Translations under genes and position numbers: made by a program
NCBI GenBank assembly: GCA_947632565.1
Contig: CANRPT010000002.1
Location: forward strand, 17,120 to 81,119
Reading direction: 5' to 3'
DNA: 64,000 bases
Source of the DNA: an uncultured Bacilli bacterium
GTDB taxonomy: Bacteria > Bacillota_I > Bacilli_A > RF39 > UBA660
Notes under the pieces: generated by a model
Seen by the model: the letters and a program-made list of their open reading frames with translations, nothing else
Databases searched by the model: none
What the model was told of the DNA's origin: nothing
Shown here: in pieces, positions 14,248-61,085 of the stretch
Layout: each line of letters begins with the position of its first letter
How positions within the stretch are numbered: the stretch's first letter is position 1

Positions 14248-14258
14248 TTCCAAATATT

Positions 14259-17200
14259 ATGTATAAATGCCCAAATAAAAATCTTCCAGAATGGAAGGAA
14301 CTTGAAAGAGTGGTACCAGAGGTTGCATACACTATCTGGGATATGAACAATGGTCATGGTATAGATAAGGCTCCGAATGGGGAGCCTTCTATCCTATTCT
14401 AGAATCTATTAGATTATTTTGATGGAAACAGAGATGAAGCTATAAGAGCAAAAGTAAAAATCTTTTCTATTCCATTTAAAAATTGGTTTGGTGATTGGAT
14501 TAACGATCCAAACGAATCTTCTAAAATAGTAGATAAAAATGGTGAGCCTTTAATTGTGTATCATTATAGTGACGCACAATTAACAGAATTTTCAACAGAA
14601 TATGACAATTATTTCTTTAAGTTTAAAGGAGGGACAAAATAGGCAATATTCTTTACTGCCAATCCAAGTCCTAAGAAAGGAACAGTATTAGATAGAAAAT
14701 ATAGAATACCTGTGTTCTTAAATGCTAGAAGCGTAATCGAGAAAACAGGTACTAAAGATGAAATTAGATAGTAGGGAGAAGATTTTGTATCTACTGTAAA
14801 TAGATCTGCTAAAGAAGCAGATGCTGCTATATTTCATAAATTTGATGATAATCAAGAGGTAAATCAAGAAATATATGTTGTTCACAAACCGAACAATATT
14901 AAATCTGTATAGGACAGTGGATATTTTACAGTAGATAATAATATTTACAGCCCTGTTGAATCCACTGTAGATTATTATTCTACAGAATTTAAAACATTTA
15001 GTGAAGACGAAATTAGAGTTTTAGAAGAAGTATCCAGTTTATATACAAAAATACAGAAGGGATTAAAAGATAGACTGAATGCTATCAAAAGATATTCTAG
15101 CAAAAATCCCAAAGTATGGAGAGATCTGCAAAACTTAATATAGAAATTATCTACATCAGAAACTGAACAAGGTATAATCCAATTTCTAGAACACGTTAGA
15201 GACTCCATAAACGATAGTAAGAATTTCTTAAGTAAGCCTATAGAAGAAATTAATGCTAAGTAGATACGACAACTATCTAATGATTATGTAGGGTTCTATA
15301 AACCTCTAATAGATAATATTCAATATATTGTTGATACTACAGATATATTTAAAGGAATAGATAACTATGATGATGTAATTAATCTAGTAGCAGAAATGTC
15401 CTAGTCTATAACTACTGTGAACAATAAATTTATAAATGTTCTCAAAAGTAAGGGGTATCAATATTTACGTCAATACCTTTCACAACAAGGCATGCCTGAT
15501 AGTTTCATTTAGGGTACTATTAATTGGCTAGATGATCCCAAACACGATTCAAGTATATTTATGAATTGGTTTGGAATGGCTACTAATAGTGATAATGCTG
15601 TTCAGCAAGCTATTGCTAAGATGTTGAATGATGTGAAGAACGCTACGGATAGACAAACTTTAGAAGTAGGCATTAGATTAGTAAAAGCACTGAATAAAGC
15701 AAAGGAAAAATATGGGAATGACGTATAGAAATTGCTTTATGAGAGAGACGATGATGGTAGTTATACTGGATATAGAGTAACTAGAATAAATTAGGGTAAG
15801 TATAATCGTACAAAGAAGCAATTCTTAGATAAACTTGCAAAACAATTAGGAATAACTAAAGATTCTAATGGTTAGTACGAATTACCACTAAATTAGGATA
15901 TATAGAAAAAGTGGTTTGATAGTATAAATAAATGGTACAATGATCACGCTGATAGAAAATATGTATCAGAATACTATACACTTAGAAATAAGATGTTGTC
16001 ATAGAAAACTAGAGATGCTCAATAGGAGATATAGAATTATATAGATAACATTACCAATCCTATTACTATAGATGGCATAGAATATGATAATCTATTAAGT
16101 GCATCCGAATATAATCAACTATAGGAATTGCGTAAACAAAAAAAGATGTTAGCAAATCCATATAATTTGGATGGAAGTGAAAAGACAGGTGATGACGCCC
16201 TAATAGCCAAAGAACTTATAGCTTTTAATGAAGAAGTATCAAAACATATCAAATATGATACAGATATATAGAAATATCAGGCAGATAGATCTAAAGTAGC
16301 TAAAAGATATGGCGATAATTCAGAATAGTTAAAATTGTGGGAAGAGCGTAATACTGTTGAAAGATATAATTAGGCTTTCTACGATAGAATAGATAGTTTA
16401 GACAAAACTCCATAGTCAGATACCTATGAACGTCTAAGAACTAGAAGAAGAAATTTATTATCTTTGTATAAAGATCCTAATACAGGTAAAATAAACACAG
16501 ATGCTATATCTGATGCTGAAAAGAGAGATCTGTTACAGCTAGATCAAGATATAGCTTCTTCATATTCTCCGAGTTAGGATACAGAAAGAAAAGGTCCTCG
16601 ATTGTCTGATTTTGCAGAAATAGCTACTACAGAGCAATATCATATAGATATGGAAAAAGCTAGAAACAATGGTACATTAGCATACAATGATTGGTTCAAC
16701 AGAAGTCACTATGAAGATGTTAGAGGATTTATGAGACCGGCATCATTTTATACTGAACTTAGACCATTACCACAATTTATGGATCAATATAAAGAAAGGG
16801 TTCCTTCTATAAAATACTCATCAATATCGCCCAGTTCTGATTGGTATAATTCTAACTGGGATCCAAATGGTCCGTCTATTTAGCCTAATAAAAAGTTGTA
16901 TGATAATAGTAAAGCTTATAATGCTGTATTGAATAAACCAGAAGTAAAACAACTATATGATGAGATAGAAGCTATTATGGACGAAGCTAACAAGTATGTA
17001 TCTTTTATGTAGTTTGCTAATGATCATAGAATGCCTCAAATACCTGCTAGATTTATGCAATCTTTGAGCCGTAAAGATGGTGTACTAGATAAATTAGGAT
17101 ATGTTTTTGAAGATTTTGCTACTACTAAAGATGATGACTTAGACTTCGTGAACGAATTTTCTACTATGCCTAATGGAGATCCAATTAAAGTAATACCTAC

Positions 17201-18818
17201 TAGATTTATAAAGATGTTAGATGATCCTAATATAATATCTACTGATGCTGTTGCAGCTGTAGTTTAGTATTATAATATGGCTGCTAATTATCGTAATATG
17301 TCAGAAAAATAGGATGACGTAGAAATGATGTTAAATCTACTGAAATAGGTATCTATTCGCACTAAAAAAGAACTTAAAGGCGCAGGATCTACAAATGTAT
17401 ATAAGTAGTCTTAGTTATTAGTAGATAGATTAATGTATGGAAGGAATAAATCTCCTATATTAATGAATGCATTTGGTAAAGAATTAAATGTAGGTAAAAT
17501 GTTAGACATAGTTAGAGGGTTTGTTACAAAAGTAAATCTATCTGGTAATCTATGGTCTATTGGAACCGGATTTTTTACTGATGTAACATATATCACTTTA
17601 GAGGCTAAAATGGGAAGATTTTTTGACTTAGAAGATCTTAGGTATGCTTAGACAGAATTTTCTAGAGAATTACCAAACATGTTATCTAACATAGGTAATC
17701 CAGATCCTAAAGGTAAATTACCATATTTATTAGCTCTTAATCAAGTAGTAAAAGATAATTAGGAACTATTTGACAGATTAGATGAAAGCTAGGTATTAAG
17801 ATCTATAAATTAGAATTTTTGGTTTGCAGGATATACTCAAGCAGACTATACTGTAAAAAGTCATACTCTTATAAGTATCTATCATAATTATCGTTTCGTT
17901 AAAGGAGATGGTTTTTTATCTAAATCATAGTATATAGGTAAATATTATCCTAACGATAGAAAAAGAGGAGAAGTAAATTTCAAATAGTTAGGTGTTACTT
18001 TATATGATGCATATATAGTACAGAATAATGGAGACGTTACAGTAGATACTAAGTATAAGGACTATATTACTGAAAAATTATTAAACGACGTAAAAAATAG
18101 AATACAAATAATAAGTAAGAGAATAGACGGTACTATACGTGAAGTAGATAAAGCGTAGGTTCATGCTAATTCTATAGCATCCTATACAGTCATGCATCGT
18201 AATTTTATGGTATCTGCTTTACACGATAGATTCAAAAGAAGGTAGTTTAATTTAGATTTAGGAGTAATAGAAGAAGGGTATTATAGAGTTACAGGTAGAT
18301 TTCTACAAAATGTTATAGGAAATAGACATTTCGCTTTAACTTAGTTATTAGCCGATTATGATAACATGAAGGAGTATGAGCAATATGCTGTTCGTAGAAC
18401 TTTAAATGAATTAATGTTAATAGCAGGATCTACTACAGTTGCTGTAATACTAGCTAGTATAGTAGACGGAGATGATGATTATGATACTTGGTTGACTTAG
18501 TCCGTAACTTATCTTGCAATGAGGTCTGCTTTTGAATTTCGAACTATGTATAATCCATTTGAATTAATGTCTCTAATTAAATCTCCTACAGCAGCTTTCA
18601 ATTGGTTTGATAATGCATCTAGTTTTATTAACTTAGTTAATCCATTTGCGTATACAGGTAATAAAACGCCATTTACTATAATTGATAGAGGAGTATACAA
18701 AGGCATGCCTGTAATACTAAGAAACATTATTAAAGTAACTCCATTTAAAAGTATGTTTGAAGCTCAAGATCCAAAATCGAAACGTAATTATTTACAAAAT
18801 CAATTGATGAACTTCTAA
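14259..18818 (+). CDS. Large virion/ejected-cargo-like protein (1,519 codons), TAG read as sense; hydrophobic segment near C-terminus
   Basis: ATG at 14259. ORF-track fragments 16602, 17031, 17433 and 18519 share this frame (pos mod 3 = 0). I counted 23 in-frame TAG between 14259 and 16600 and no TAA or TGA before TAA 18816-18818. Confidence 0.7.
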
Positions 18819-24074: not shown

Positions 24075-24161
24075 TAGGAGTATAGAGATTCGAACTCTAT
24101 AACAAATAAGAAATATATCTTTTTCTTATTTATACCATGTCCTAGAATATCTAGAACTCCT
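24075..24161 (-). tRNA. tRNA-like element with the anticodon arm replaced by a 12-bp AT-rich hairpin
   Basis: On the minus strand: acceptor AGGAGT/ACTCCT, T-arm TAGAG-TTCGAAT-CTCTA, D-like stem CTAG-ATATT-CTAG. The central hairpin is ATAAATAAGAAA-AAGATATA-TTTCTTATTTGT. No readable anticodon. Confidence 0.4.
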
Positions 24162-24168
24162 ATTTAAA

Positions 24169-24283
24169 AACGTAGGTTGTGTACTATTTTCAGTCTATGC
24201 ATTTTGCGCCTCCGACACACCTTACTTACAAGGTATTACCCCCGTTAGTTACTTGCTCACATAGTGGTACACTAACCTACGTA
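24169..24283. other. Structured intergenic element closed by a long-range helix
   Basis: ACGTAGGTTGTGTAC (24169-24183) pairs with GTACACTAACCTACGT (24268-24283) with a 1-nt bulge, enclosing about 85 nt that looks G+C-richer by eye. Confidence 0.3.
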
Positions 24284-24330
24284 TTCCTAGCTTATGCTCT
24301 AGGTAGCAACTATTATTTTATTTTTCTTCT

Positions 24331-26289: not shown

Positions 26290-27276
26290 TTAATTGTTAT
26301 TACTAAACGAAAATTTCTTTGCTGGTTCTTCGTCTCGTACTGTTTCAATTAAATTATTGTATTTTAGATCGTTATCAAACTCTAATATTGAACATTCGCC
26401 TGCATCTCTGTTTTTTAGTATATGCAGATAGACTTTGTTCTTAACTAGTAAACGATTCGGTCCATATTGTTGTATATTGAGTAGTTCTGGTCTATGAATA
26501 CAAATAACATAATCAGAAGCATGAAATATTGTATCAGCAGAAGAAATATCACTACGCATTGGATAATGCATAGAAGGATTGTTAATTCTATCAGGAGCTT
26601 CAATGTTTCGGTTCATCTGTGATAACTGAATTATAGTAGTATTAGGGTATTTTTTTACCTTAATAAATAGTTTCTGTAAATCCGAAATCACTTGCAAGGC
26701 AGAAGCTTGACCTTCAACAAGTAATGTATGATCTAATATAATCACAAATCTCTTGCCTTTAGCCTTGTTCTCATAGAAGTAATCTATAGTAGAAGCTATA
26801 TTGTCAACTGTTCCCGGTGTATCTACATAATATATCGGATATGACTTTATCTGTTGAGTTGTTTCTTCAACATTCTCTAATAATTCGTCTGTAAGACTAT
26901 CATTAGCGCTATATAGCTCAGCAGTAGTTTGCCTTAACTTACTGCTTATTTTTCTACCTACTTGCCTAGAACTTAGCATCTCAAAAGAGAAATTAAGTAC
27001 TATAACATCCTGATCAGAATTGAGATCTATTAAATCGTTTTCTAACGTATTCACAAATGAAGACTTTCCACTACCAGATATACCTACTATAGTATAAATA
27101 GTATTGGGTTCAATTCCTCCCATACATTGAGTATTGAACTTCTTCCACCTTGTCTTAAGAGATTCAATCTCATGATTTTTTCTCTTCTTTATATATTCTA
27201 CTGCTTCTATAGCTGCAGAAGATATATGACGAAATGTAAGTGTATTAGTAGATATCTGTTCCATAATTATTTTCAA
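26290..27276 (-). CDS. DnaB-like replicative helicase (RecA-fold domain)
   Basis: Walker A GISGSGKSSF and Walker B FVIILDHT. Position between the PolB and primase modules. Confidence 0.7.
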   Translation of the reverse strand: MKIIMEQISTNTLTFRHISSAAIEAVEYIKKRKNHEIESLKTRWKKFNTQCMGGIEPNTIYTIVGISGSGKSSFVNTLENDLIDLNSDQDVIVLNFSFEMLSSRQVGRKISSKLRQTTAELYSANDSLTDELLENVEETTQQIKSYPIYYVDTPGTVDNIASTIDYFYENKAKGKRFVIILDHTLLVEGQASALQVISDLQKLFIKVKKYPNTTIIQLSQMNRNIEAPDRINNPSMHYPMRSDISSADTIFHASDYVICIHRPELLNIQQYGPNRLLVKNKVYLHILKNRDAGECSILEFDNDLKYNNLIETVRDEEPAKKFSFSNNN

Positions 27277-27811
27277 TTAATGGTTGTTCTACTTTCATTT
27301 GCTCTTCATAGGTTTCCCACTCATGTTGAGTGAGCCATTTCCACATAGTTTTCATATAACCTATTTTTCCAGTAAGCATTTTATTCTCTATCTCAAATTT
27401 AAGACAGTTGCATATATGCTGATGCATAGCTTTACTTTTGCCTACTATACGATTATATTCCTTTCTACATTTGTTTATATTAGCTCTTAAGAAACCTTTG
27501 GTTCCGTCAGGTCTTATAACATAAACTGGAAATAGGTCATAAAATTCATCAAACATAGATTTATCTTCTTTTAGAAGTTCAATTAATTTTGATGTTTTAC
27601 TTATGACTTGGTTACTATCAGATTTTGTGATAGTTATTAAACCTTGATTTTCTAACTCTTGTATTTCTTCTTCATTAACTAGGCTGAGAAGTCTCTGAAT
27701 GTCTTGATTGATGGTTTGATTATCATTCAATACTAGGGTTAGGAATACTAACTGATTAATAGATAAATTTTCAATCCGTTCAAGGATTGAGGTGTCTATT
27801 TCTAAAATCAT
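27245..27811 (-). CDS. Hypothetical protein (possible helicase loader/initiator by position only)
   Basis: Intact 188-aa ORF overlapping the helicase start. Confidence 0.5.
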   Translation of the reverse strand: MILEIDTSILERIENLSINQLVFLTLVLNDNQTINQDIQRLLSLVNEEEIQELENQGLITITKSDSNQVISKTSKLIELLKEDKSMFDEFYDLFPVYVIRPDGTKGFLRANINKCRKEYNRIVGKSKAMHQHICNCLKFEIENKMLTGKIGYMKTMWKWLTQHEWETYEEQMKVEQPLIENNYGTDIY

Positions 27812-27869
27812 ATTCTCATATTTTTTATATGAGCTATGTTTTTTCTGAAATATATTTGATAAGTCTTTG

Positions 27870-29819
27870 TTAATCCCATAGACTCATTTGTAACGGTTTT
27901 AATTCACGGATTATTTTATAGGCTTCCATAATATAGTACCTATAATTAATCTTTCTCTCTTCAATTGGTTTATCATCTAAGTAATTTAATAAAGTAACAC
28001 CTGATGCAGTAAGCATATTCTGATACTGTTTTTCTGTAGGACATGGAATACTTATATCAAAACGATTAGTATCTTTTTCCTTCCATTTCCATAGATAAGC
28101 ACCATTAGTACTTGCATAGAAACGATTAGTCCTTTGTTGTTCTTTATTATTATACTCAACATGCCATTGTTTACCAGTTTTTTCAGCCATTAGAAAATCT
28201 CTAATATCTTGGCAACCTTTTATAGTTTCTTCTACTGGTACTCCGTTCTTAAAAAAGTTTATTACTGCTTTCGGTATGATCTTCGGAGTTAAACCTTTCC
28301 CTAATTTCACAGTAGTAATAAACATACCCTTTTCTTTTACTTTATCATCTTCAGTAATAGCAAAGTAGTCATTTATAGCATATTGATACATAGCCTTAAA
28401 ACGTTCCTCTTCTAAAGTAAGTTTAGTAAGTTGTTCCCATTCTCTACATACTTTGTTTACACTGTCATATACAGATTTTTTAAGTAATACAAACAAACCG
28501 TCTGTATTAGCTTGGATGATTCGGCATCCTAATTGGGTTAGTTTTTCAGCTAGCATTAGTAATAGTAACTGTCCATTTATACGTATTTGCATTACTGCAA
28601 ATGGACTATAACAGAAATTGTGTGGATTCTGTAAGTTACCTGATAATCCATTGAGAGCAAGCTTTAAGGTTTCGTTTTTAACCTTATTGCCATTGTGTTT
28701 AGCTTCGATACGCTCATCTTTAATTTGCTTATATACTTCTAAGAACTCAGGTCCTAAATGTTTAGGATAGAATTCATATTCTATTAGCATACTTGGATAT
28801 AGTGATGCAACATCTATATCAATGAGCATTTCATCTTCTTTTGGTATAACTATTTCAGGATCATTTACTGAATGAATTCCTCCAACTCCTACAGAGTATC
28901 TTAGTCCTTCAAATATGAATTTATTTTCATATCCTTTTCTTCCTGGGGATACTATTTGGCTTTTCATATCATCTAATACCTTTTGAAGTATAGGACTATC
29001 ATACTTAATAAATGGTAGTATTACCTTATTTAATGGTATTACATCCATTGGAGATCTTAAATCTTTAATATCATACCAGGTTTGACCTGTTTTTTCAAGA
29101 TATTTCCGCGTTAAAATCTTCATTCCAATGTTTACTCCGTCTTTACTAAGTACTCTTACTCCGTATTCATCTTCAATAGCTAACCTTAAATCTACATCTT
29201 TTTTACATCTATTGAGTAATTCCTCAGTAGAATTAACATCATTAATATTATATTCAATCATTGAATCTATCTGATTTTCAGGTAAATCTGCCTGCCAATC
29301 TGCAACAAATTCTTGTACATTTTTGTATTGCATTGTTACTTGAATCTCTTTCAAACCTACTCTTAACTTATTACTATAAAGCATAGTAAGAATATCAAAC
29401 GAATCAAAACAGATCATATATTTCCATTTACTCCATGCTCTAATATCGTCTTCGCTAGAAGTAGTAATTACTTTACTTAAATTAAATATAGATCTACATA
29501 TATCTCTATATCCTTTGTATTTCATTATAATATAATAATCTATTATGTAATTTATAATAGGATTATCGTAATGAAGATTATTATAACCACAAAATAATTT
29601 ATCAGTATTTAACTGAATTTTCGTAGTATATAAATCTCCGAAAGTATAATCTGTATCAACGGTATGAAAGAAATTAACTAATTCATCTAATTGATTTCTT
29701 CTGCAAGATATTTCAAATTTATGCAACTCACCTGTTTCTGTATTTTTTACAGTACAATGGAAAACATTGGGGAATACCTCAATATCATATACATAAACAA
29801 TCTTATCTCGTATAATCAT
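27870..29819 (-). CDS. Family B DNA polymerase
   Basis: Exo motifs VYDIEVFPN, YNNLHYDNPII and EYNINDVNS. Pol motifs DVASLYPS, KLALNGLSGN and QANTDGLFV. Confidence 0.9.
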   Translation of the reverse strand: MIIRDKIVYVYDIEVFPNVFHCTVKNTETGELHKFEISCRRNQLDELVNFFHTVDTDYTFGDLYTTKIQLNTDKLFCGYNNLHYDNPIINYIIDYYIIMKYKGYRDICRSIFNLSKVITTSSEDDIRAWSKWKYMICFDSFDILTMLYSNKLRVGLKEIQVTMQYKNVQEFVADWQADLPENQIDSMIEYNINDVNSTEELLNRCKKDVDLRLAIEDEYGVRVLSKDGVNIGMKILTRKYLEKTGQTWYDIKDLRSPMDVIPLNKVILPFIKYDSPILQKVLDDMKSQIVSPGRKGYENKFIFEGLRYSVGVGGIHSVNDPEIVIPKEDEMLIDIDVASLYPSMLIEYEFYPKHLGPEFLEVYKQIKDERIEAKHNGNKVKNETLKLALNGLSGNLQNPHNFCYSPFAVMQIRINGQLLLLMLAEKLTQLGCRIIQANTDGLFVLLKKSVYDSVNKVCREWEQLTKLTLEEERFKAMYQYAINDYFAITEDDKVKEKGMFITTVKLGKGLTPKIIPKAVINFFKNGVPVEETIKGCQDIRDFLMAEKTGKQWHVEYNNKEQQRTNRFYASTNGAYLWKWKEKDTNRFDISIPCPTEKQYQNMLTASGVTLLNYLDDKPIEERKINYRYYIMEAYKIIRELKPLQMSLWD

Positions 29820-29839
29820 AATATAATAATGTTAGTTTG

Positions 29840-29956
29840 TTCCCTATTTCGGATTTGAACCGACGACCTCCCCTAACATATACGAATATATAGTAATACG
29901 AATATTACATCAATATATACGAATTACAGGATGCTCTACCACTGAGCTACTAGGGA
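29840..29956 (-). tRNA. tRNA-like gene with a 51-nt insertion inside the anticodon stem
   Basis: Minus strand: TCCCTAG-TA-GCTC-AGTGGTA-GAGC-A-TCCTG-[51 nt]-TAGGG-...-GTCGG-TTCAAAT-CCGAA-ATAGGGA-A. The insert (29876-29926) holds the perfect hairpin GTAATA-TTCG-TATTAC (29893-29908) and three ATTCGTAT repeats. Confidence 0.5.
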
Positions 29957-29965
29957 TCCATGAAA

Positions 29966-30577
29966 TTATGCTGCAAGCAATTTTGACTTAGTATAATATA
30001 TAATATTATTATCTTTACTATCCTGGATTCTAATACCAGTTACATCATCATTGTCTGCATATTTTTTAGCTATTTTCATAGCTTTATTTTTAGCGTCTTC
30101 ACGAGAAGATGCTTTAAAATAGTCTGTCAAAAAATCATAATCTCTTTGTGGATTATCTTCTGACTTTTTCTGTACTACATACTGAAATGTACGTATATCA
30201 GTTTTTTCTTTCACTGATAATTCAGCAGCAGTATACCCTTTCTGAATCTTTTTGTTGACGAATTCAGAAATATGTTTGCGCTCTTTAAGCAGTTGTTCTC
30301 GTAATCCTTGCTTAATTCTAATACGCTCCTTTATCTGTTCTTTAGTTAACGTAACAGGTTTTGGTTTTTCAAATAATTTGTTTTTTACAATACGTGTAAA
30401 TTTACGTTTTTCCTTACTAGTATACTTGATAGTAGGATCATATCCTGCTTCTTTAAGTATTTGTTTAATGCGTTCTTTCTTAGAAAGCTTAGCATTTTTA
30501 TTCTCATTACGAGATTCTGTTGCTATTTTTGTTGTATATTCTGCTTGACGCTTATCTATATAAATGACTTTTTCCAT
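29966..30577 (-). CDS. Hypothetical lysine-rich protein
   Basis: Intact 203-aa ORF, highly basic. Confidence 0.6.
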   Translation of the reverse strand: MEKVIYIDKRQAEYTTKIATESRNENKNAKLSKKERIKQILKEAGYDPTIKYTSKEKRKFTRIVKNKLFEKPKPVTLTKEQIKERIRIKQGLREQLLKERKHISEFVNKKIQKGYTAAELSVKEKTDIRTFQYVVQKKSEDNPQRDYDFLTDYFKASSREDAKNKAMKIAKKYADNDDVTGIRIQDSKDNNIIYYTKSKLLAA

Positions 30578-30591
30578 AATCTTGATAATTT

Positions 30592-30795
30592 TTATTCTTT
30601 ATTACTTGTTAAGTAAAATCCTTGTATTTTCTTAGGAGACTTAACGTTATTATTCTCTTTGTACATTATACCTACACAATTATAACCTAATACAATATGT
30701 TCTATATTTGTACAAGCATTAAGAGCATCGTTTACACGACGCTCAAATGCTTTATTAGTTTCAAATAAACTTTTTCTAATATATTTAGCTTTCAT
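30592..30795 (-). CDS. Hypothetical small protein
   Basis: Intact 67-aa ORF. Its start overlaps the upstream gene's stop by 1 nt. Confidence 0.5.
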   Translation of the reverse strand: MKAKYIRKSLFETNKAFERRVNDALNACTNIEHIVLGYNCVGIMYKENNNVKSPKKIQGFYLTSNKE

Positions 30796-31304
30796 TATGC
30801 AACTAAGGCTATAGGAGCAGATTCAATATTTAGTTCTGCACTATTGTTGAAATCTTCAAGTTCCTTATTAAGTTTATTAATTTCTAATTGTAATTTATTT
30901 TTTAAGTTTGTTATATATGCAGAAGTAAGTTCTTCTGTAATATTTAATCCTTTCTTACTCTTAGCTCGTTTGATCTTAGGATCAATAGTACGTACCTTAG
31001 TAAGATGAAATAGTTGTTCAGATTTCTCACTTAGTGAGAAAATAGTAAAATAGTTATTACTAGTAGGAAGCTCTGAAAACTTTTTATATCCCATATTAAT
31101 ACATTGCAGATATAGCTTCATTAGAATGCGTTCTTCTGCCATTTCTTCAATTTTTGTTAAAAGCACCTTCAAATCAAAATTGCGAGTTGCTTCTTTAGAT
31201 ATAACATTTTCATTTTTAATAATATTCCAGTACTTAGTAATTTCTTTACTTAACTCGTCACGACGAGTTTTTGCATATTTAGATGTAATTGATTTCATAT
31301 TCAA
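30795..31304 (-). CDS. Hypothetical protein
   Basis: Intact 169-aa ORF. Confidence 0.6.
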   Translation of the reverse strand: MNMKSITSKYAKTRRDELSKEITKYWNIIKNENVISKEATRNFDLKVLLTKIEEMAEERILMKLYLQCINMGYKKFSELPTSNNYFTIFSLSEKSEQLFHLTKVRTIDPKIKRAKSKKGLNITEELTSAYITNLKNKLQLEINKLNKELEDFNNSAELNIESAPIALVA

Positions 31305-31353
31305 GTGATTTGTTTTTTAAGTTAATACTTGACCGAAATCGTTTACTAGTTTG

Positions 31354-31420
31354 TCATGCATGACAGGCTCAAACTGCCGTCTCTATTAAATAGCGCTCTA
31401 ATCAACTAAGCTAATGCATG
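31354..31420 (-). tRNA. 67-nt mini tRNA-like element with a truncated anticodon arm
   Basis: Minus strand: perfect 7-bp acceptor CATGCAT/ATGCATG, TA, D-arm GCTT-AGTTGATTA-GAGC, T-arm GGCAG-TTTGAGC-CTGTC. Only 15 nt (CTATTTAATAGAGAC) sit where the anticodon and variable arms belong. Confidence 0.35.
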
Positions 31421-31426
31421 AGAATT

Positions 31427-31478
31427 AAAAACTACCCAATTCAGCAGTTTTTATAAAAAAGTACCCAATTCAGTACTT
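31427..31478 (-). terminator. Two tandem hairpin terminators sharing the loop core CCCAATTCAG
   Basis: AAAACT...AGTTTT (31427-31450) and AAGTAC...GTACTT (31459-31478). Each is followed by a T-run on the minus strand, downstream of gene 31505-32083. Confidence 0.5.
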
Positions 31479-31504
31479 AGAAATGTTTAATCATTAGGTC
31501 CAAT

Positions 31505-32083
31505 TCAACCTTTTCTGATTTTAACAATTTTGTTGTTTAGCTTTCCGATGATCGGTAATATCCGTCCACCACCGAGATCTACACCTACGCCAATCTCAAC
31601 ATCATCGTCAAGACTGTACTCGTGTTTATACTGTTCACGTTGTTCTTCTGCATATTTTTTTGCATTTTCCTGATTGATATATTTAGAATGTAGTTCCCCG
31701 TCTGAACAATTCCTCATACTATCAAACAAAATATCTACTACGCAGTCGAAGTCACGTTCTTTTACAGCTTTATCAAGAATACTTTTAGTAATTCCGTCAA
31801 AAGCAACATCATTTCTGGATCCATTAGATCCAGTAATTGCGTCTGCTATACGAATTGATGCATCTATAATACTTACCGATTCATAAGAATTACAGCATCT
31901 TTGCCACCAAATTGGCCCACGCCCATAATAAAAATAGACGGTTCCATTCTCTTTAATTTGAACCTTTTTAGGAGTTTCAATTACAGCTCCGTTCCGAATC
32001 TGAACTTTGCTGAGAATTGTTGGCTCTGAGCAAATAAGTATTCGCAGAAGCTCTACTCTTATAGGAGAAATTCTGCTATTCAT
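31505..32083 (-). CDS. Hypothetical protein
   Basis: Intact 192-aa ORF. Composition looks G+C-richer than the replication module (by eye). Confidence 0.6.
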   Translation of the reverse strand: MNSRISPIRVELLRILICSEPTILSKVQIRNGAVIETPKKVQIKENGTVYFYYGRGPIWWQRCCNSYESVSIIDASIRIADAITGSNGSRNDVAFDGITKSILDKAVKERDFDCVVDILFDSMRNCSDGELHSKYINQENAKKYAEEQREQYKHEYSLDDDVEIGVGVDLGGGRILPIIGKLNNKIVKIRKG

Positions 32084-32090
32084 AACTTAC

Positions 32091-32738
32091 TTATCCCTGG
32101 GCTTGTTCGATAGTTACGTTTACTTCTACTTGATCTTCGTTAGTGATCCCACACTGCCGTAAGTACTCTACTTGAGCACGATCCTGTTGGTCCATAATGT
32201 TCCGGACAGTTTCTGCAAGTTGCATGTTTTTACGGGCTTGTTCCTCATAGAAATTCAGAATAGATGAGTTATGCATCTTTAAGCATGTATTCAACTGCGG
32301 AAGTTCAGAAGGACCAAAGAAAATAGGTCTTGTAGGATTTGTTGGATCGTTCGGCTTGGTTAATGTTGCAATACAGGCCATTACACTTTCTCGGGTTGCT
32401 TTCTGGAAATTCGGTTCAGCAAGATCAAATACCAGTGATGGATCCTGAGACTTCGGATTCAGAATTACCTTTGGATGACCGTCAAAGTCCTTTTCACAAA
32501 GTTCAATACCTGTAATATCAATAGGCTTGACTATAAAAATCCGGACATCCTTCCGTAATGTGTTCTTGTCATTCTGAACGTCTTCTTTCCACTTCAGATC
32601 CGGGTTGTGCGATACAATCGTATAGATCTGGCTACTAAAGTATTCTCCATACTTTTTGCAAACTTGCCGATAACGAGCCATAATAGAAGCTAACTCCGTG
32701 TTAGGAGTAACCATTTGTATTTTACTATTTTGTTCCAT
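32091..32738 (-). CDS. Hypothetical protein
   Basis: Intact 215-aa ORF. Confidence 0.6.
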   Translation of the reverse strand: MEQNSKIQMVTPNTELASIMARYRQVCKKYGEYFSSQIYTIVSHNPDLKWKEDVQNDKNTLRKDVRIFIVKPIDITGIELCEKDFDGHPKVILNPKSQDPSLVFDLAEPNFQKATRESVMACIATLTKPNDPTNPTRPIFFGPSELPQLNTCLKMHNSSILNFYEEQARKNMQLAETVRNIMDQQDRAQVEYLRQCGITNEDQVEVNVTIEQAQG

Positions 32739-34907
32739 AAAAAATGTTCCCTTCTTGATTCCGTACTTGATATACCAATACGGATCATTTTTAGTTTTTA
32801 AGTTAATAATAAGTTAATGCTCTCTACTGTTCGATTATTTTATAGTATTACAATAATGGTAATAGTGAATTCAATCACATAATCTACTAAGTATATTTGA
32901 TAATAAATGTTAATTTATTCGAAAATATCTTTTGATAAATTCTCTGATAAATTTTCTGATAATATGCTTTAACGTCCCGTTTCGACGGTTAAGATTCAAT
33001 TTTTTCGATGCTTAACGCACCCCTCACCGTTATTTTATATCGCTATTAGTTGCAATATAAAAGACACAGATCATCGACTAAGTAAGTCTACCTGGTATTT
33101 CCGTATTATCGAAATTCATAGAATTACGGTCGTTTATCTAACGTTACCAACTCATGAGCTCATTGCTTAAAGCATGACCCACTCATACCATGCATAGGAT
33201 TTGTTGTTTATAACTGCGCGAACACGAGGATTTCCACCTCTCATCGTCTCCTTGTTGCTTGATTGTTATTACGATCAAGTTAAATACTTCGTCCTTTAAT
33301 CTACCGAGACAGGGTGATAGACGACAGGTTATTAACGAATCAGCGTTCTCTTTACGTATATATTTGCGATATATACTTTATGAGTTTCTAATGTCAGCGA
33401 TAACGGTTGGCAGTCTGGGGGTGACTTATACTCCATACGGTCTGTCTTACAAATGACAATTTGCTACTTCTGTACTATCATTGGACTTCCCCAATTTCTA
33501 TGTGACTCATAGCCTTCCTACACTATGCAGTCTGATTAATAATATTAATTTATTCCCTTAGAACAGATTTAACTAGGCCGGTTCTATTCGGCATTAACTT
33601 TCAGATGCAGTAAAGTAACATCATCTGTTACAGTCCTACCTCTCTGGTTCCAGGGTTCTAAGCTGGAGCAGCTTGGCTCTTACTTGTTAATCTATTGTTT
33701 TTGACTACTACTAATATCTCCTACTCTGGAATGAGTGTGATAATCTAGTAATACACCTTTTACATATCTTGAAAGGTATAAGCTCTGCTGTTTTTTAGAA
33801 GGAGTACCAAGACTCTCCTTTGTTTATTATTTTATGTCATAATCGTACTTGCTAAAGGTACGTGACAACTAGAATCAGGGTTATTGCGCCCTCAAACCGC
33901 TTAGACATCTTTGTCTATTCATTCCTCATTCAATTATACTCACACGAACGAATAAGCACGTGAGTCACTTTAGACTTGAAAGACGGTATCAATCTCATAT
34001 ACCTCATCCCTTATACGTAAATTCTTTTGCGGCACGCTAGTTACGGTAGCGCACAGGATTGGCTCCTGCTCCCTGGTAATCAGTCGGATCATGGATCTGC
34101 ACGTAGCTTCACTCCCCGGATCATTGCATGTCCAGCCTTCATATCTTTACTTTGTATAAGTATGTACCATAACACGGTTATCCTTACATTAGTATCAGTA
34201 ATTACTCCCTTTATATTATGAACCAGTTATCATAAAAACACTAGAGTTAGCCTATTTTTCCAATCAGGACGTATAATTACGCTTTTGTATGAAGCGAGGT
34301 TGGAGCTCGCTTGTTGCGTTAGTCAGCCATAATATTATTCAATAATCCTTTTCCAAGGGATTATTCAAGAGCCCTTTGCTCTTGTTTCAGCATCGTGTTC
34401 ATATTCCTTCTTGAGTCACATCTTGATTGACGCATACGAATATAGAGATTTCGTTCTCTTTTTGAGGATTAAGGACTTTATCTTTTACAGTTTTATTTGT
34501 TTATTGCTGCGATTCAGTCTCCTCTTGTTTGAATTAATTTGTAACTAGGGTATCTTCTTGTTGCTCCTATATTACGGGTTCTTCACTATTAAATCACCAG
34601 ACGGTTCTCATATTAACAGCGCAGGCTATTCACCCTCTCCTGCTTTCTTATACCTTTTTCACCAGCATAAGTTATTATCCTACCTTTTGAGTATCTTACG
34701 GTGTTAGCCGCTACGAAGCATCTCATAACTACTTCTTACATATTCTCGGATTCTGTCTTTTTTCGGGCTATGTATAAATGAATACAAACTCCCTGACGCA
34801 GTAGTACTTAAAAACTTCCTCCTGTGACTGCCGGAGTGATTTACGCTACAGTTTTACTCCTCTCGAACTATGATATAATTATAGTATTTATATAGCGGTT
34901 ATTATCA
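32739..34907 (-). other. 2,169-nt ORF-free, hairpin-dense island (candidate large structured RNA or RNA array); strand assumed from flanking genes
   Basis: No minus-strand ORF of 60 aa or more. Sampled minus-strand frames contain TAA, TAG and TGA. Perfect hairpins at 34292-34312, 34341-34365 and 34366-34384. Looks G+C-enriched by eye. Confidence 0.45.
32897..32964. promoter_or_regulatory. Cluster of TGATAA(A/T) repeats upstream of gene 32091-32738
   Basis: tttgataataaatg (32897-), tgataaat (32933-40), ctgataaat (32944-52) and ctgataata (32956-64), with roughly 12-nt spacing. Confidence 0.4.
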
Positions 34908-37315: not shown

Positions 37316-37374
37316 TTTGATAATGTTTTAAATTGTTAGTAAATAAGTTAATTTTAATAGTGTTTTTAGAGAGG

Positions 37375-39828: not shown

Positions 39829-39908
39829 TAATAAGGAGCAGATTCGAACTGCTCTCCTCTAACTTCATCAGTGTTAGCGCTTCTAATTCCATATAAAGCT
39901 ACTTATTT
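39829..39908 (-). tRNA. tRNA, isotype unresolved (9-nt anticodon loop)
   Basis: Minus strand: AAATAAG-TA-GCTT-(13-nt D-loop with GG)-AAGC-G-CTAAC-ACTGATGAA-GTTAG-AGGAG-AGCAG-TTCGAAT-CTGCT-CCTTATT-A. The acceptor register is off by one at one end. Confidence 0.55.
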
Positions 39909-40261
39909 CCATTTAGTTTTATATCTATTAGATACTATGAGGCGACTGTCACTATTTCTAGTGCTAAAGTCTATTTCACAACCCCGTCATTAGTAACAGT
40001 TTCTCTTTAAATAAAGAGTTGTTAACTAGGATACTGCATGCTCCCCTAGGGATATATCACGCTACTAAGCGTGTATAATCCATTACATAACTTGTATTGC
40101 CAGTTATCTGCTTATTGACCTATTCTACTTCACATTGTTGCAATCAAAACCATAATACCCCGAATCTACCGTTCTAAGATTTAAGAACTTGGCGCACGGT
40201 AGAACACGATCAAATACCCTAGTTCTTTTCCTTAGTATTGCTTTGAAGCTCTAGGTGAGCG

Positions 40262-40286
40262 TGGAGTATGAGGGAGTCGAACCCTC
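40262..40286 (-). ncRNA. Orphan tRNA/tmRNA-like 3' module (T-arm plus 3' acceptor strand)
   Basis: Minus strand reads GAGGG-TTCGACT-CCCTC-ATACTCC-A. No complementary 5' acceptor strand found within about 500 nt. Confidence 0.35.
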
Positions 40287-40323
40287 GTCTTACAACTGAT
40301 TCATAGACCTAACAGTCAATTGT

Positions 40324-40353
40324 GGCTATGTAGGCGACCAAACCTACATAGCC
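40324..40353. other. Perfect 11-bp hairpin with 8-nt loop CGACCAAA
   Basis: GGCTATGTAGG-cgaccaaa-CCTACATAGCC. Its loop is related to those at 38346-38373 and 38486-38511. Confidence 0.5.
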
Positions 40354-40768
40354 TTTGGTCTTTTAAATTATTTTACTTATAAGTTTTGATAACTGATCAT
40401 TTATAGACTAGTACAGAAGTATTACTACTCAACATTTGCTATAATGTTTGCCGATTTGATATCATAAGAATGCTATTTGCATAATATACTCTTTGAGTAT
40501 AGATTCAATACTATATATTGCGCAATTATTATAATACATCCTCACGATCTTAGGCACTTGATCAGTGGCACGTTTTCTAGTCCAACTCCAGTATTGAATA
40601 GTTCTCACTATCGTACATTTGTTTGTTTCCTGTCAATTCAGGATGAAGCTGCTTATTATAGGATACCGATGTACATGGATCTCACCATTTGCTTTCAATC
40701 TTCTTCGGATTCTCTATAGAATTAATATCTCTATTATTCAAGTATCTTTCCTGGACCTTGTGTGGCTA

Positions 40769-41233: not shown

Positions 41234-41471
41234 TTTTTGATAATGTTTAAAGATTGATACTATTATTAATTAACACTAAGTTTTAAATTAAAAAAGAACT
41301 GTTCTGTATATTTATATCTCTTATTCTACAGATAACCCCTATCCTTCTCTCCCTTTATCTGTAAATCTACAGATTGCCGTTGAATAGCCGTTACATAATG
41401 ATATGTATTAGGGTTTTGGTATATTTACAGTTCTTTTGGGTTGATTGGAATCCACCATACTAACAATTTAA

Positions 41472-42836: not shown

Positions 42837-43333
42837 TTTACATAGGCTTTAAATTGTTAGTTAATAAAATTGATGACGTTACTCTAGGGTATTCTAGAGT
42901 AAGAAACACATCTGTTAATGAATGATTCAAGTTATAATACCATAACTTTGAGACTAATACTAAAATGATTTCAAATGCACTTAACGCTTTGTGTTAATAA
43001 AGAAAATCAAATTTTAACATTACTTGTTAGAGTTTTATTCTATGACTCTCACATGTTTTAGGATTACTCCAGAGTACAAGCAGAAAAGGCTGTCAAACCT
43101 AATCTTATCACTCACCTGATTTTAACGTCCGCACGATCGTAGTATTTGCAATTATCAGTACTAATTAGAGCAATTGCCACCCTTCTTCTCCCGCTTAAAA
43201 ATACTACTTACGCCCCACAGGCTTGTCATCTTCTGAAGACTAACCTATTCTCACGAACTAATTAGCTATAAATTCACGTTTAACCATTAATCTTAATAAA
43301 TCTTTGTTAAATACTACTATGCATATACTTTCT
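42837..43333 (-). other. 497-nt ORF-free island
   Basis: No ORF on either strand. Contains a 9-bp hairpin TTACTCTAG-ggtatt-CTAGAGTAA near 42884-42907. Confidence 0.35.
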
Positions 43334-44655: not shown

Positions 44656-45369
44656 ATATACTTTGATTATTGATTAATACTCTTAAATAATTTAAATACA
44701 TTAGCTTCACATGCAAACTAGGAAGGTTTGTTTTTTAACATGTTACTAGACTCTATCACCACGATGAGGTTGTATTTATTGATAGAGAATACTACTACAA
44801 TACCTTATTAGCACGGATTTTACATGTAGTAGCTGGAATACGTGACATCCCTATATAATTTTTAGTTAGTAATCAAATAAAATAAAGTAAGCGCATTAAT
44901 ATAATAACTAGATATAAGATATATTAGATATCTCATTTGAAAAAGTTATTATAAGCTATGCTAAGAGCTATCTAGGATTAGGTATATAAGACATATTGAA
45001 TATCTTACTTGAAGATCTCATTTTCTCTTACTTTAAATGATACTTATTGTTCAGTTAGTATCAGACTGTCAAGCACATTATAGAGTTATCTCTATGTATT
45101 AATGTTAATACCTATTTCTCTATTACTTGCTTAGGATTGGTTACTTTCTATAAGGGTTGCACATCACAGTGAACCTAACTGTGACCCTCTTTACCACGTG
45201 GATTATTAATTATTAAATATCCAATAATTTAATGTGCATATAAATTAAGGATAAATAATAATTAATTACTTTGACTCTGCATTGTCCACCGACTTGTCAC
45301 GGCCTTCTTTGGTTGCATTAAAGTAGTAATACATGTGGAATTACACTATCTTCACAGACCGTGTAATTG
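44656..45369 (-). other. 714-nt ORF-free island
   Basis: No ORF of 60 aa or more. Local hairpins, for example CACAG-tgaacctaa-CTGTG. Confidence 0.35.
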
Positions 45370-52384: not shown

Positions 52385-52429
52385 TATTTAAAAGTCTGAC
52401 AGGGACAGACATTAAATATTCCCTGGCAC

Positions 52430-56253: not shown

Positions 56254-56255
56254 CT

Positions 56256-58775: not shown

Positions 58776-58833
58776 TTCTTATGAAAGAAGAATGGCGAAC
58801 AATTAAAGGGACGGATGATAGGAGAGAAGTAAT

Positions 58834-61067: not shown

Positions 61068-61085
61068 ATCTAATTATATATAATT

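Follow-up and report, generated by a model that had tools for sequence, protein, structure and literature searches.

Why would a phage keep, directly upstream of its DNA polymerase gene, an element with the body of a tRNA in which 51 nt stand in place of the 7-nt anticodon loop? The element occupies positions 29840 to 29956, on the minus strand, of a stretch of 64,000 nt that was analyzed as a whole and is here called the window. The window belongs to a crAss-like gut phage and shares 98% identity with cr56_1 (Suoliviridae, Buchavirus). In the human gut, crAss-like phages are more abundant than any other viruses. A sequence-only reading had presented the element as a tRNA-like gene split by an insert, and as one of five in the window that have abnormal anticodon arms. 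We found that a tRNA-like gene with an abnormal arm is indeed present and is conserved across relatives, and we refer to it and its counterparts at other sites as tRNA-like modules (TLS).

The element is 117 nt long, including the discriminator A at 29840, and all its parts lie on the minus strand. The 5' strand of the acceptor, UCCCUAG (29950 to 29956), faces AUAGGGA (29841 to 29847), with six of the seven pairs formed and a mismatch at G7.A66. U8 and A9 are present, the D arm GCUC-AGUGGUA-GAGC (29933 to 29947) contains G18 and G19, the variable region is GAGGUC, and the T arm GUCGG-UUCAAAU-CCGAA (29848 to 29864) has a loop of the T-Psi-C type. These three arms had been called ordinary, and both the sequence and the RNAfold minimum-free-energy structure, a cloverleaf with an extended anticodon arm, agree. 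The 5-bp anticodon stem is likewise as described, UCCUG (29927 to 29931) pairing with UAGGG (29871 to 29875), but the 51 nt that it encloses (29876 to 29926), which do contain three copies of ATTCGTAT and the hairpin GTAATA-TTCG-TATTAC, are an extended arm folded as a rod rather than a loop. A 7-nt loop with U33, an anticodon at positions 34 to 36, and a purine at position 37 is absent, and the anticodon arm of this element cannot decode.

Gene finders treat the element inconsistently. ARAGORN in default mode called no tRNA across the whole window, while the Rfam tRNA model scored the element at 33.8 bits (gathering score 29; E = 0.003 for the window), with 56 nt assigned to the anticodon-loop segment, for which 11 are expected. 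Chance matches overwhelmed a loose regular-expression search for such modules, and we used stricter scans. A scanner requiring an acceptor, U8, a D arm with a GG loop, and a T arm found two matches in the window, compared to 0.165 expected from 200 Markov shuffles. A covariance model of the tRNA top half (acceptor, D, and T arms) is unable to span long insertions and gives fragmented matches; at E < 0.1 it marked six places in the window and none beyond them, namely the five TLS sites and the tRNA-like domain of the phage tmRNA, a separate gene at 39966-40351.

The recovery of these places shows that the four other elements of the sequence-only reading are tRNA-like modules, and the wider pattern stands: the window holds five modules, each syntenic with tRNA-like variants in relatives. 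On the minus strand, the TLS before the DNA primase gene (24075 to 24161) has a 12-bp hairpin at the anticodon position, a noncanonical D region, and a fold z-score of -4.0; the TLS at 31354 to 31420 has its anticodon arm cut to a 4-bp stub (covariance model E = 0.015); and the TLS downstream of the tmRNA (39829 to 39908) combines a 9-nt anticodon loop, ACUGAUGAA, with a 6-bp acceptor stem. On the plus strand, the TLS at 52430 to 52533 carries a structured insertion of about 32 nt in the anticodon arm and scores 31.8 bits with the Rfam tRNA model. The window also holds a conserved, ORF-free structured block of about 2.2 kb (2.17 kb), and the genome holds many homing endonucleases.

At the polymerase site, all 59 distinct upstream sequences (from 77 of 80 polymerase relatives fetched) bear a tRNA or a tRNA-like element. 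Distant relatives have a canonical tRNA-Met(CAU) there, lineage L082-84 has a 3' half alone, and an armless form of 58 nt has no anticodon arm; other forms have an anticodon arm with a GNRA tetraloop, a 5-nt loop, or a 12-nt loop. The span between the D and T arms, which in a normal tRNA holds the anticodon arm and variable loop, is 8, 21 to 23, 29 to 30, 68 to 69, 73, or 87 nt. Because some relatives have no anticodon arm at all, the module at this site cannot decode. In two phages whose flanks are 97 to 99.8% identical, one has the armless form and the other the rod form, which indicates that the content of the anticodon arm is dispensable for whatever role the site has. The same pair speaks against the proposal that the element is a decoy for anticodon nucleases, since the armless form offers such a nuclease nothing to bind.

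The 3' side of the module is more uniform. Polymerase-site elements end 18 to 21 nt before the ATG (24 nt in one type-D variant), and a C opens the trailer in all polymerase-site homologues; in the window, the trailer is the 20-nt CAAACUAACAUUAUUAUAUU (29820 to 29839), between the discriminator and the polymerase ATG (29817 to 29819). The first trailer nucleotide is also C at nearly every other site and in nearly every type, canonical phage tRNAs included, with a few primase-site parses being ambiguous. This near-universal C suggests a shared context of 3'-end processing. The trailer motif ACTAA(C/A) recurs upstream of other early genes, including genes that lack a TLS; if this motif is promoter-like, the TLS could instead end the upstream transcript at its 3' side.

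Covariation across related phages, which had been suggested as a check, strongly supports the acceptor, D, and T stems. In 25 polymerase-site homologues, these stems comprise 16 pairs, and 97.8% of the cells are paired, compared to 72.6% in shuffles. Changes on both sides occur in 14 of the 16 pairs, in forms whose D and T arms are 8 to 87 nt apart, and the covariation score is 0.777, compared to 0.26 in shuffles and at most 0.195 in slid controls. Two-sided changes affect all seven acceptor pairs, three of the four D-stem pairs (where 100% of cells are paired), and four of the five T-stem pairs. The tertiary-contact residues U8, A14, G18, G19, T54, T55, C56, and A58 are invariant among the homologues. 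G.U pairs are confined to the gene-sense strand, which points to a structure maintained at the RNA level.

The rod is conserved as well. In it, 29915-29921 pair with 29877-29883 as a 7-bp helix, and 29893-29908 form the 6-bp hairpin GUAAUA-UUCG-UAUUAC; at least 16 distinct variants of the element, from IMG/VR and metagenomes, attest to its conservation. Relatives show compensatory A-U to G-C changes at three rod pairs, affecting both helices and seen for one pair in two sequence backgrounds, and a U.G to C.A change at a fourth position; the loop sequences are nearly invariant across variants. The anticodon stem beneath the rod is paired in 92.7% of cells, with one-sided changes between U.G and C-G and between G.U and G-C. 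Judging from these comparisons, the insert is a helical unit in its own right, supported by covariation, that prolongs the anticodon stem and ends in a UUCG cap. Each genome has a single copy of the hairpin pattern, located exclusively in the polymerase-site TLS (21 IMG/VR contigs), and we rejected a dispersed mobile mini-element on the grounds of this single copy and single location; 10 other metagenome matches to a looser version of the pattern are unrelated chance matches.

The remaining sites vary in a similar manner. All 80 relatives examined at the primase site have a TLS there, 42 to 136 nt long and ending 16 to 23 nt before the ATG. The smallest of these forms consist of an acceptor, a GG-loop, and a T arm, which is the classical minimum that RNase P and the CCA-adding enzyme accept as a substrate. 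At the 31354 site, the stub covaries (CUAU/AUAG, CUC/GAG, CUUU/AAAG), and cr4_1 has a canonical tRNA-Arg(UCU) of 65.3 bits. The site at 39829-39908 is represented in cr52_1 by a minimal form of about 45 nt. The stem of the 52430 insertion covaries from GACG/CGUC to GAUG/CAUC, as does acceptor pair 1-72. Half-tRNAs at some sites adjoin HNH genes or follow replacement of the upstream sequence, and lineages with a 3' half alone indicate that the module is not indispensable.

The TLS at 52430-52533 ends 8 nt upstream of a candidate amber-suppressor tRNA (52542 to 52620, plus strand), which has the loop CUCUAAA, an encoded CCA, and an unusual T loop, AGCAGAA. ARAGORN scores this tRNA at 90.3, below its threshold, with anticodon cta. 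TAG is read as sense on the plus strand, where the late genes are TAG-recoded, and the tRNA at 52542-52620 is likely the real decoder for these genes. On the subject of detection, Yutin et al. 2021 (PMC7886860) go no further than saying that suppressors may escape it. The same place in cr56_1, annotated as tRNA-Gln, is occupied by a different tRNA/TLS cassette. We rejected a TAG-suppressor identity for the element at 29840-29956, because relatives lack the arm and the phage has another tRNA with a CUA anticodon; in addition, the single CTA of the insert follows A rather than U33.

The element upstream of the polymerase gene fills its gap, beginning after a 9-nt spacer from the stop codon TAA (29966-29968) of the upstream ORF (spacer and stop codon together, 29957 to 29968) and lying on the same strand as the flanking genes. 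The upstream gap leaves no space for a terminator or promoter, and we infer from this that the TLS is co-transcribed with the early operon. Other gaps of the same operon contain a self-cleaving hatchet ribozyme and RAGATH RNAs; the early operon is rich in RNA-processing elements. We searched the relatives' loci examined for a ribozyme in place of a TLS at a syntenic site and found none. The hatchet site keeps its hatchet and the TLS sites keep their TLS, which makes the idea of interchangeable modules a speculation. A Pfam scan of ten neighboring proteins for tRNA-processing or repair enzymes returned just primase and HNH domains.

Given this setting, we propose that the TLS are non-decoding tRNA relics, co-transcribed with the early operon, that act as substrates of RNase P, RNase Z, and the CCA-adding enzyme and punctuate the transcript; we regard this proposal as about equally likely to be right or wrong. 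Each module would descend from a phage tRNA gene that lost its anticodon loop. The half retained, a 7-bp acceptor stacked on a 5-bp T stem together with the elbow of D loop and T loop, would be what maturation enzymes recognize; RNase P, RNase Z, and the CCA-adding enzyme require just the acceptor/T minihelix and elbow. The TLS before the polymerase gene would be transcribed as a part of the early (replication) operon on the minus strand, where a hypothetical gene precedes it and the DNA polymerase gene follows. Host RNase P would cut at its 5' end, 9 nt past the upstream stop, and RNase Z or an equivalent would cut near the discriminator, which 20 nt separate from the start codon of the polymerase gene. 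These two cuts would punctuate the polycistronic RNA and give the polymerase mRNA a short defined leader, with a presumed benefit to replication-gene expression. The rod would be a lineage-specific filler whose self-folding keeps the tRNA-like fold undisturbed, and the small RNA that is cut out might serve a purpose of its own or none.

Of the roles floated by the sequence-only reading (mini-intron, anticodon-nuclease decoy, and RNA-processing handle), the handle fits the evidence best, and the presence of the same top-half pattern at the primase, 31354, and 39830 sites supports it. Several observations count against it, among them the lineages with a 3' half alone, the constrained insert, and the occurrence of ACTAA(C/A) before genes that lack a TLS. 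In the sub-lineage of the window, G.A mismatches occur at 7:66 and 49:65, at the junction of acceptor and T stem. A C right after the discriminator may disfavor RNase Z, as work in B. subtilis indicated. Finally, the TLS appears as a short island of divergence within near-identical flanks, a pattern more typical of diversifying pressure or homing-endonuclease-driven conversion than of a passive processing signal.

The same data can be set against readings in which the element is a working tRNA or has no function as RNA. That it is a decoding tRNA whose 51-nt insert is spliced by some pathway, for example a phage nuclease plus a ligase, was already disfavored and appears extremely improbable, even though the tRNA body is intact and above the Rfam tRNA threshold and a phage that recodes TAG needs unusual tRNAs. 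No single contiguous deletion produces a 7-nt loop with U33, as had been observed; position 33 is A every time. With introns allowed, ARAGORN made no call for the window copy, and its calls in close relatives (Ile-tat, Asn-gtt, and His-atg, scores 100 to 104) disagree and have shifting boundaries, so that there is no consistent intron-bearing tRNA. The catalytic core of a group I intron (P3-P9) typically exceeds 200 nt, compared to 51 nt here, and no Intron_gpI match was found in the window at E <= 1, whereas a comparable search does detect one in cr4_1. The bulge-helix-bulge of archaeal and eukaryal introns, two 3-nt bulges flanking a 4-bp helix, is absent, the predicted junction being an asymmetric 5-nt/1-nt internal loop. 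The insert is a covarying, UUCG-capped helix, relatives at the same site are armless or capped by GNRA or UUCG, TAG has a candidate decoder of its own in the CUA tRNA at 52542-52620, and the cr56_1 annotation includes no RNA ligase or kinase. A decaying tRNA, or a DNA-level target of homing endonucleases or recombination with no function as RNA, was also disfavored already, and we think it very unlikely. It would account for the canonical tRNAs at the same sites in other lineages, the half-tRNAs beside HNH genes, the many homing endonucleases of the genome, and the anticodon-arm position as a hot spot for indels. The canonical tRNA-Met of distant relatives is indeed what would be expected if the window copy were a pseudogene, but this copy is not a lone decayed one: non-decoding versions occur in many lineages, with their stems kept by compensatory change. 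Two-sided changes in forms that do not decode, covarying insert helices, strand-specific G.U pairs, and the persistence of elements at four or five sites in all relatives sampled all argue against decay.

Two further readings grant the module a function as RNA and place it elsewhere. The excised tRNA-like RNA might itself be the product, a stable small RNA that RNase P, RNase Z, and the CCA-adding enzyme mature and that acts as a decoy or sponge for host factors binding the acceptor/elbow half of tRNAs, or as a cargo-bearing "tRNA scaffold," with mRNA processing as a by-product. We consider this unlikely. The insert at the polymerase site is conserved and constrained, its helices kept by compensatory change and its loops nearly invariant, and the 52430 insertion is likewise conserved; an excised RNA or cargo hairpin could thus have a function of its own. 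Cassette-like replacement of the TLS within flanks 97 to 99.8% identical, and the difference between the suppressor-locus cassettes of the window and cr56_1, fit diversifying selection, and the always-encoded C74 would allow completion to CCA. Possible targets would include toxins that modify tRNA 3' ends; to our knowledge, however, no defense directed at tRNA ends has been described for the presumed Bacteroidales host. Cargo is missing from the armless and minihelix versions, a trans-acting RNA has no need of a fixed short distance before a given start codon, and the acceptor has no G3.U70 or other obvious identity element. If instead the TLS stays on the polymerase or primase mRNA, it might be a shield against decay (an RNase P-made 5' structure opposing 5'-end-dependent decay), a ribosome platform (a standby site in a host lacking Shine-Dalgarno initiation), or an operator for a phage protein, for which T4 gp43 autoregulation is a model. 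This is slightly less likely still in our estimation. The spacing to the ATG is constant within the polymerase and the primase site, the genes served are replication genes, and the C after the discriminator might block 3' cleavage. Between sites, however, the spacing varies (about 20, 36, and 55 nt, and 8 nt to another tRNA), and the conserved tRNA-specific tertiary residues are not required of a generic protective hairpin.

Processing by RNase P and RNase Z, our preferred reading, could also be combined with release of a product. In Loutivirinae crAss-like phages, the relics, hatchet ribozymes, and RAGATH RNAs would be alternative cis-cleavage modules, and the TLS would also be released as stable CCA-tailed small RNAs with exchangeable cargo at the anticodon position under diversifying selection; we offer this as a doubtful conjecture. 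If true, it would amount to a natural "tRNA scaffold" and a new class of phage counter-defense or regulatory RNA, the cargo perhaps serving as a sponge for host defenses that target tRNA ends or for tRNA-maturation enzymes. If the modules are RNase P/Z handles, they would represent tRNA punctuation in a bacterial virus, and they would give a testable function to the kind of neighborhood that first yielded hatchet ribozymes and RAGATH RNAs. The syntenic series from canonical to tetraloop-capped to armless or minihelix forms is a natural dissection of the parts of a tRNA needed for a non-decoding function. For annotation, an entire group of conserved RNAs derived from tRNAs goes unnoticed by tRNA finders in these genomes, and Rfam-based pipelines would wrongly label them tRNAs; in recoded phages, a real amber suppressor can fall under the ARAGORN threshold while higher-scoring "tRNAs" are non-decoding.

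Our literature search found no prior description of crAss-phage tRNA-like elements, of armless phage tRNA-like elements, or of RAGATH or hatchet RNAs together with tRNAs. Plant mitochondrial t-elements and mascRNA come closest to the phage TLS. The t-elements are tRNA-like mRNA-processing signals that are cut by RNase P and RNase Z and set mRNA ends (PMC1920247). Like these and like mitochondrial tRNA punctuation generally, the phage TLS are non-decoding relics of tRNA genes that lie between coding regions and conserve an acceptor/T mimic while decoding features are absent. Unlike t-elements, they occur in a dsDNA bacterial phage, their cleavage is inferred, some lineages have structured insertions at the anticodon position, and the D arm and elbow are usually fully kept. 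The mascRNA and MEN-beta RNAs (MALAT1, NEAT1) and the TMERs of MHV68 are tRNA mimics that are not aminoacylated and that serve as RNase P/Z handles on longer transcripts. TMERs resemble the rod form in being virus-encoded and in coupling a tRNA-like unit to hairpins; their hairpins lie 3' of that unit, whereas the hairpin of the phage TLS lies inside the anticodon arm. Both mascRNA and TMERs are eukaryotic nuclear or herpesviral, whereas the phage TLS belongs to a bacterial mRNA operon.

Among bacterial and phage RNAs, the tRNA-like domain of tmRNA, with its acceptor, T arm, and D-loop analogue, is armless like the 42- to 48-nt primase-site and cr52_1 forms; unlike that domain, the element at 29840-29956 has C3-G70 rather than G3.U70 and no tag frame or pseudoknots. 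Species 1 and 2 of phage T4 (rnaC and rnaD) are non-decoding tRNA-like small RNAs processed by RNase P along with the tRNA cluster in which they sit, whereas the phage TLS sits singly before replication genes. We know of no series from canonical to armless forms at syntenic sites described for rnaC and rnaD. The bacterial Y RNA YrlA has a module that imitates the acceptor, T, and D arms and has no anticodon loop (PMC4201824). YrlA ends at the helix that replaces the anticodon stem and its "acceptor" is closed by a loop, whereas the phage TLS ends at the acceptor, like a true tRNA. Viral tRNA-like structures of the TYMV type differ in forming the 3' terminus of an RNA genome and in having a pseudoknotted acceptor and a terminal CCA; the phage TLS is internal and intergenic in a dsDNA genome, with an ordinary acceptor helix and no encoded CCA. 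In the engineered "tRNA scaffold," a foreign RNA replaces the anticodon stem-loop, and the tRNA body gives processing and stability. Its topology is that of the rod form, with the difference that the scaffold is a laboratory construct and the rod form is carried by a phage.

The window comes from a crAss-like phage; over positions 27000-33000 it shares 98.4% identity with NC_055890 (cr56_1; Crassvirales, Suoliviridae, Loutivirinae, Buchavirus faecalis). On the minus strand, the ~19-47 kb stretch uses the standard code for its early and replication genes (DNA polymerase, ScpB-like protein, helicase, primase). The plus-strand late genes (1-18818 and 53167-63774) form long ORFs only with TAG as sense, which turns 1-14247 (plus strand) into a single frame of 4748 codons.

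Upstream of the DNA polymerase gene, on the minus strand at 29840-29956, lies a tRNA-like module (the main TLS). From 5' to 3', it consists of acceptor UCCCUAG, U8 A9, D arm GCUC-AGUGGUA-GAGC, A26, stem UCCUG, and 51 nt, followed by UAGGG, GAGGUC, T arm GUCGG-UUCAAAU-CCGAA, AUAGGGA, and discriminator A. The sequence-only reading had described a split tRNA-like gene here, and the description was correct, with only the strand left unstated; three ATTCGTAT copies and a GTAATA-TTCG-TATTAC hairpin were confirmed within the element. The Rfam tRNA model spans it end to end (33.8 bits, gathering score 29), although the anticodon-loop segment of the alignment is 56 nt compared to the 11 expected by the model. 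A strict scanner for the tRNA top half (acceptor, D arm, and T arm) returned 2 matches in the window versus 0.165 expected by chance; ARAGORN in default mode reported zero tRNAs across the whole window. Because the element fails the anticodon loop test, it lies outside the decoding-tRNA family. In structure it qualifies as a tRNA-like processing signal, for which the defining cleavage is predicted.

The 51 nt that replace the 7-nt anticodon loop had been described as a loop, with a mini-intron among the speculative roles, but RNAfold and compensatory changes indicate a helical rod instead. Folding of the single sequence gave a cloverleaf in which the anticodon arm runs on via internal loops into more helices with a UUCG cap. 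We gathered 16 distinct variants of the rod-bearing form from IMG/VR and metagenomes and computed pairing on 11 of them, among which the 7-bp helix (29915-29921 with 29877-29883) was 98.7% paired and the 6-bp hairpin stem was 100% paired. Three rod pairs showed A-U to G-C double changes, one such change being present in five sequences and one recurring in two different sequence backgrounds, and the rod also showed an isosteric U.G to C.A change. Each genome has a single copy of the rod hairpin, always within this element, so a dispersed repeat was ruled out.

To compare relatives, we fetched 80 loci whose polymerases are related at 74-99% amino-acid identity and inspected the 200-300 nt preceding the start codon. 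Each contained a tRNA or tRNA-like element that stops 18-21 nt short of the ATG (24 nt in one variant), reduced to its 3' half in lineage L082-L084, with radical differences among lineages in the stretch between D arm and T arm. The most distant relatives carry a canonical tRNA-Met(CAU) (form F, ARAGORN 119-122). Form B, found in cr52_1, cr109_1, cr113_1, cr60_1, and many contigs, is armless and 58 nt long (acceptor, D arm, 8-nt linker, T arm) and scored 35-49 bits with the Rfam tRNA model. Form D has a 5-bp stem with a 5-nt loop, CUAUG (GNRA tetraloop GUAA in locus L036), and is labelled by RefSeq and ARAGORN as 'tRNA-His', with an AUG anticodon that is implausible. Form E (cr4_1 type) has a 5-bp stem and 12-nt loop, form A is the rod-bearing form of the window, and forms C and G have other insertions (73 and 87 nt). 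Two loci with different TLS alleles, one armless (L032) and one rod-bearing (L034), have upstream flanks that are 97% identical (583/599) and downstream flanks that are 98-99.8% identical (599/600; 1964/2000). This comparison indicates that the armless and rod-bearing forms are exchangeable at the polymerase site and that the TLS is a small divergence island.

The main TLS had been placed within a wider pattern of four further elements, and a T-arm scan and a top-half covariance model converged on all four, as well as on the main TLS and the tRNA-like domain of the tmRNA. Upstream of primase (24075-24161, minus strand), a TLS is present in 80/80 relatives and ends 16-23 nt before the ATG. Elements could be parsed at 68 of these loci (41 distinct sequences): the shortest is 42 nt (acceptor, AAUGGUUAAU, and T arm), those of 47-48 nt consist of acceptor, D arm, and T arm without a linker, and the longest reaches 136 nt through nested insertions of hairpins; acceptor and T stems vary in sequence by lineage, with pairing kept. 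Directly upstream is a conserved structured RNA (~24168-24310, minus strand), in which a small hairpin, CCUAG-AGCAUAAG-CUAGG, precedes a long stem, ACGUAGGUU/AACCUACGU (GCGAUACGUGAGUAG...CACUCACGU in a second lineage), around a hypervariable 10-110-nt apical domain; no Rfam match was found for it. Where the window has the minus-strand TLS 31354-31420, a canonical tRNA-Arg(UCU) (65 bits) occupies the site in cr4_1, and Buchavirus genomes have a covarying 3-4-bp stub (CUAU/AUAG, CUC/GAG, CUUU/AAAG). Upstream of this TLS (~31430-31515, minus strand) are 2-3 tandem hairpins with covarying 4-5-bp stems and a conserved 8-nt loop, UGAAUUGG, which is UGAAUGGGG or UGAACUGG in relatives. The TLS at 39829-39908 (minus strand) has a 9-nt loop in the window and cr4_1 and a ~45-nt minimal form in cr52_1.

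The plus-strand TLS at 52430-52533 carries a structured insertion, and the insertion stem shows covariation (GACG/CGUC to GAUG/CAUC). A pseudoknot-like element lies upstream of it (52394-52426, plus strand), in which the loop of the hairpin GUCUG-ACAGGGA-CAGAC base-pairs with a UCCCUG located 11 nt downstream; relatives show covariation in both helices (e.g., CGGGGA/UCCCCG). Eight nucleotides downstream of the TLS is a tRNA (52542-52620, plus strand) with a perfect anticodon loop, CUCUAAA (CUA), an encoded CCA, and an atypical T loop, AGCAGAA. It was missed by ARAGORN default mode and by Rfam and is likely an amber suppressor for the TAG-recoded late genes. At the same locus, cr56_1 (98% identical) has a different, canonical CUA tRNA (record 92120-92199) and lacks the adjacent TLS; therefore, the tRNA cassette has been swapped there. 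Half-tRNAs (3' half only) also occur: cr53_1 (L003, 6190-6286 and 2707-3327) has one with an adjoining HNH endonuclease gene at the 31354-31420 site, and lineage L082-L084 has one upstream of polymerase, with the upstream sequence replaced. The cr53_1 DNA polymerase gene is also interrupted by an HNH gene. Insertion or replacement of sequence, endonuclease genes included, seems to be concentrated at tRNA and TLS sites.

We aligned only the top half of 25 distinct elements. Standard pairs filled 97.8% of cells, whereas shuffles gave 72.6% and slid controls 29-49%; 14/16 pairs showed both-sided changes, and the covariation score was 0.777 versus 0.26 for shuffles. The invariant positions were U8, A14, G18, G19, T54, T55, C56, and A58, the residues that form the tRNA core and elbow. 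The top half is thus under structural selection, and whatever role the TLS play requires the acceptor/T stack and elbow, not an anticodon. The base following the discriminator is C at almost all sites, where CCA is unencoded, and the same holds for canonical phage tRNAs.

In the early-operon region, RNA cleavage and structured RNAs between genes form a clear theme. Intergenic gaps of the operon that includes the main TLS contain RAGATH-20 (40546-40643), RAGATH-9 (41292-41448), a hatchet self-cleaving ribozyme (43114-43240), and RAGATH-7 (45038-45266), all on the minus strand, with syntenic sites kept in cr60_1, cr52_1, and cr4_1 and three hatchets in cr4_1; these metagenome-derived families are now placed in Loutivirinae crAss-like phages. 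A phage-encoded permuted tmRNA (39966-40351, minus strand; ARAGORN-predicted tag GNTSYVMDYTRLVA*) scored 32 bits, under threshold, with Rfam tmRNA_permuted and is annotated as SsrA in cr60_1, cr52_1, and cr115_1. The region of cr4_1 (L113) syntenic to this tmRNA/RAGATH cluster has a group I intron (2421-2710, 75 bits) that is absent from the window. Many minus-strand ORFs are preceded by the motif ACUAA(C/A), often UUACUAAC or AACUAAC (e.g., at 37316-37345, 42837-42866, 29820-29839); it lies ~12-25 nt before early-gene start codons whether or not a TLS is present and could be a leader/initiation or promoter-like signal. A 2.17-kb ORF-free block (32739-34907, probably minus strand) has a GC content of 0.365 compared to ~0.30 in its flanks and a length kept at 2106-2169 nt in five genomes of three genera (window, cr109_1, cr52_1, cr53_1, cr4_1). 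It had no long ORF in any code and no codon (3-nt) periodicity in its substitutions; in Rfam, nothing matched at E<=1, and a single weak match (E=3.2) was at chance level. The RNAalifold consensus energy was -249 versus -62 to -77 for column-shuffled controls, with 98 compensatory pairs versus 17-25. Unannotated in most RefSeq relatives, the block appears to encode one or more very large structured phage ncRNAs and is worth separate study.

RNase P, RNase Z, and the CCA-adding enzyme recognize the 12-bp acceptor/T stack and elbow and accept minihelices; the features conserved in the TLS are exactly those recognized by these enzymes. The stop codon of the upstream ORF (29966-29968) lies 9 nt before the main TLS, and the polymerase ATG lies 20 nt past the discriminator. 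Because this gap leaves no space for a terminator and promoter, transcription of the main TLS as part of the operon RNA is almost certain. We give about an even chance to the reading that the TLS are nondecoding, operon-embedded tRNA relics kept as processing sites, at which we infer cleavage. In this reading, which is the most economical one, operon-embedded phage tRNA genes would always have doubled as tRNAs and processing sites; once decoding was dispensable, the anticodon arm would be free for deletion, capping, or filling, with the processing half kept. A rod would be obliged to fold on itself, leaving the module undisturbed, which would explain its compensatory changes.

The excised RNA could instead be functional in itself, as a decoy, sponge, or cargo scaffold; insert conservation and cassette-like replacement both fit this alternative, which we consider unlikely. 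Slightly less probable still is a cis role in the 5' UTR, with the TLS staying on the mRNA. The covariation disfavors a neutral pseudogene or DNA-level target, which we regard as improbable. Least credible is an intron-containing decoder: as had been noted, no single excision from the main TLS yields U33 and a 7-nt loop, and no group I intron core was found in it. With introns allowed, the ARAGORN calls for close relatives were Ile(tat), Asn(gtt), or His(atg), at differing boundaries and threshold-level scores, and the window copy was not called. The main TLS belongs to no intron-bearing tRNA class.

In full-text literature searches, we came across no account of tRNA-like modules lacking an anticodon, whether in crAss-like or in other phages; on this point, Yutin et al. 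2021 (PMC7886860) state only that suppressor tRNAs may go undetected. In plant mitochondria, tRNA-like 't-elements' set mRNA ends (PMC1920247). The systems nearest to the TLS are these t-elements and tRNA punctuation, mascRNA, the MHV68 TMERs, the tRNA-like domain of tmRNA, and the T4 species 1 and 2 RNAs.
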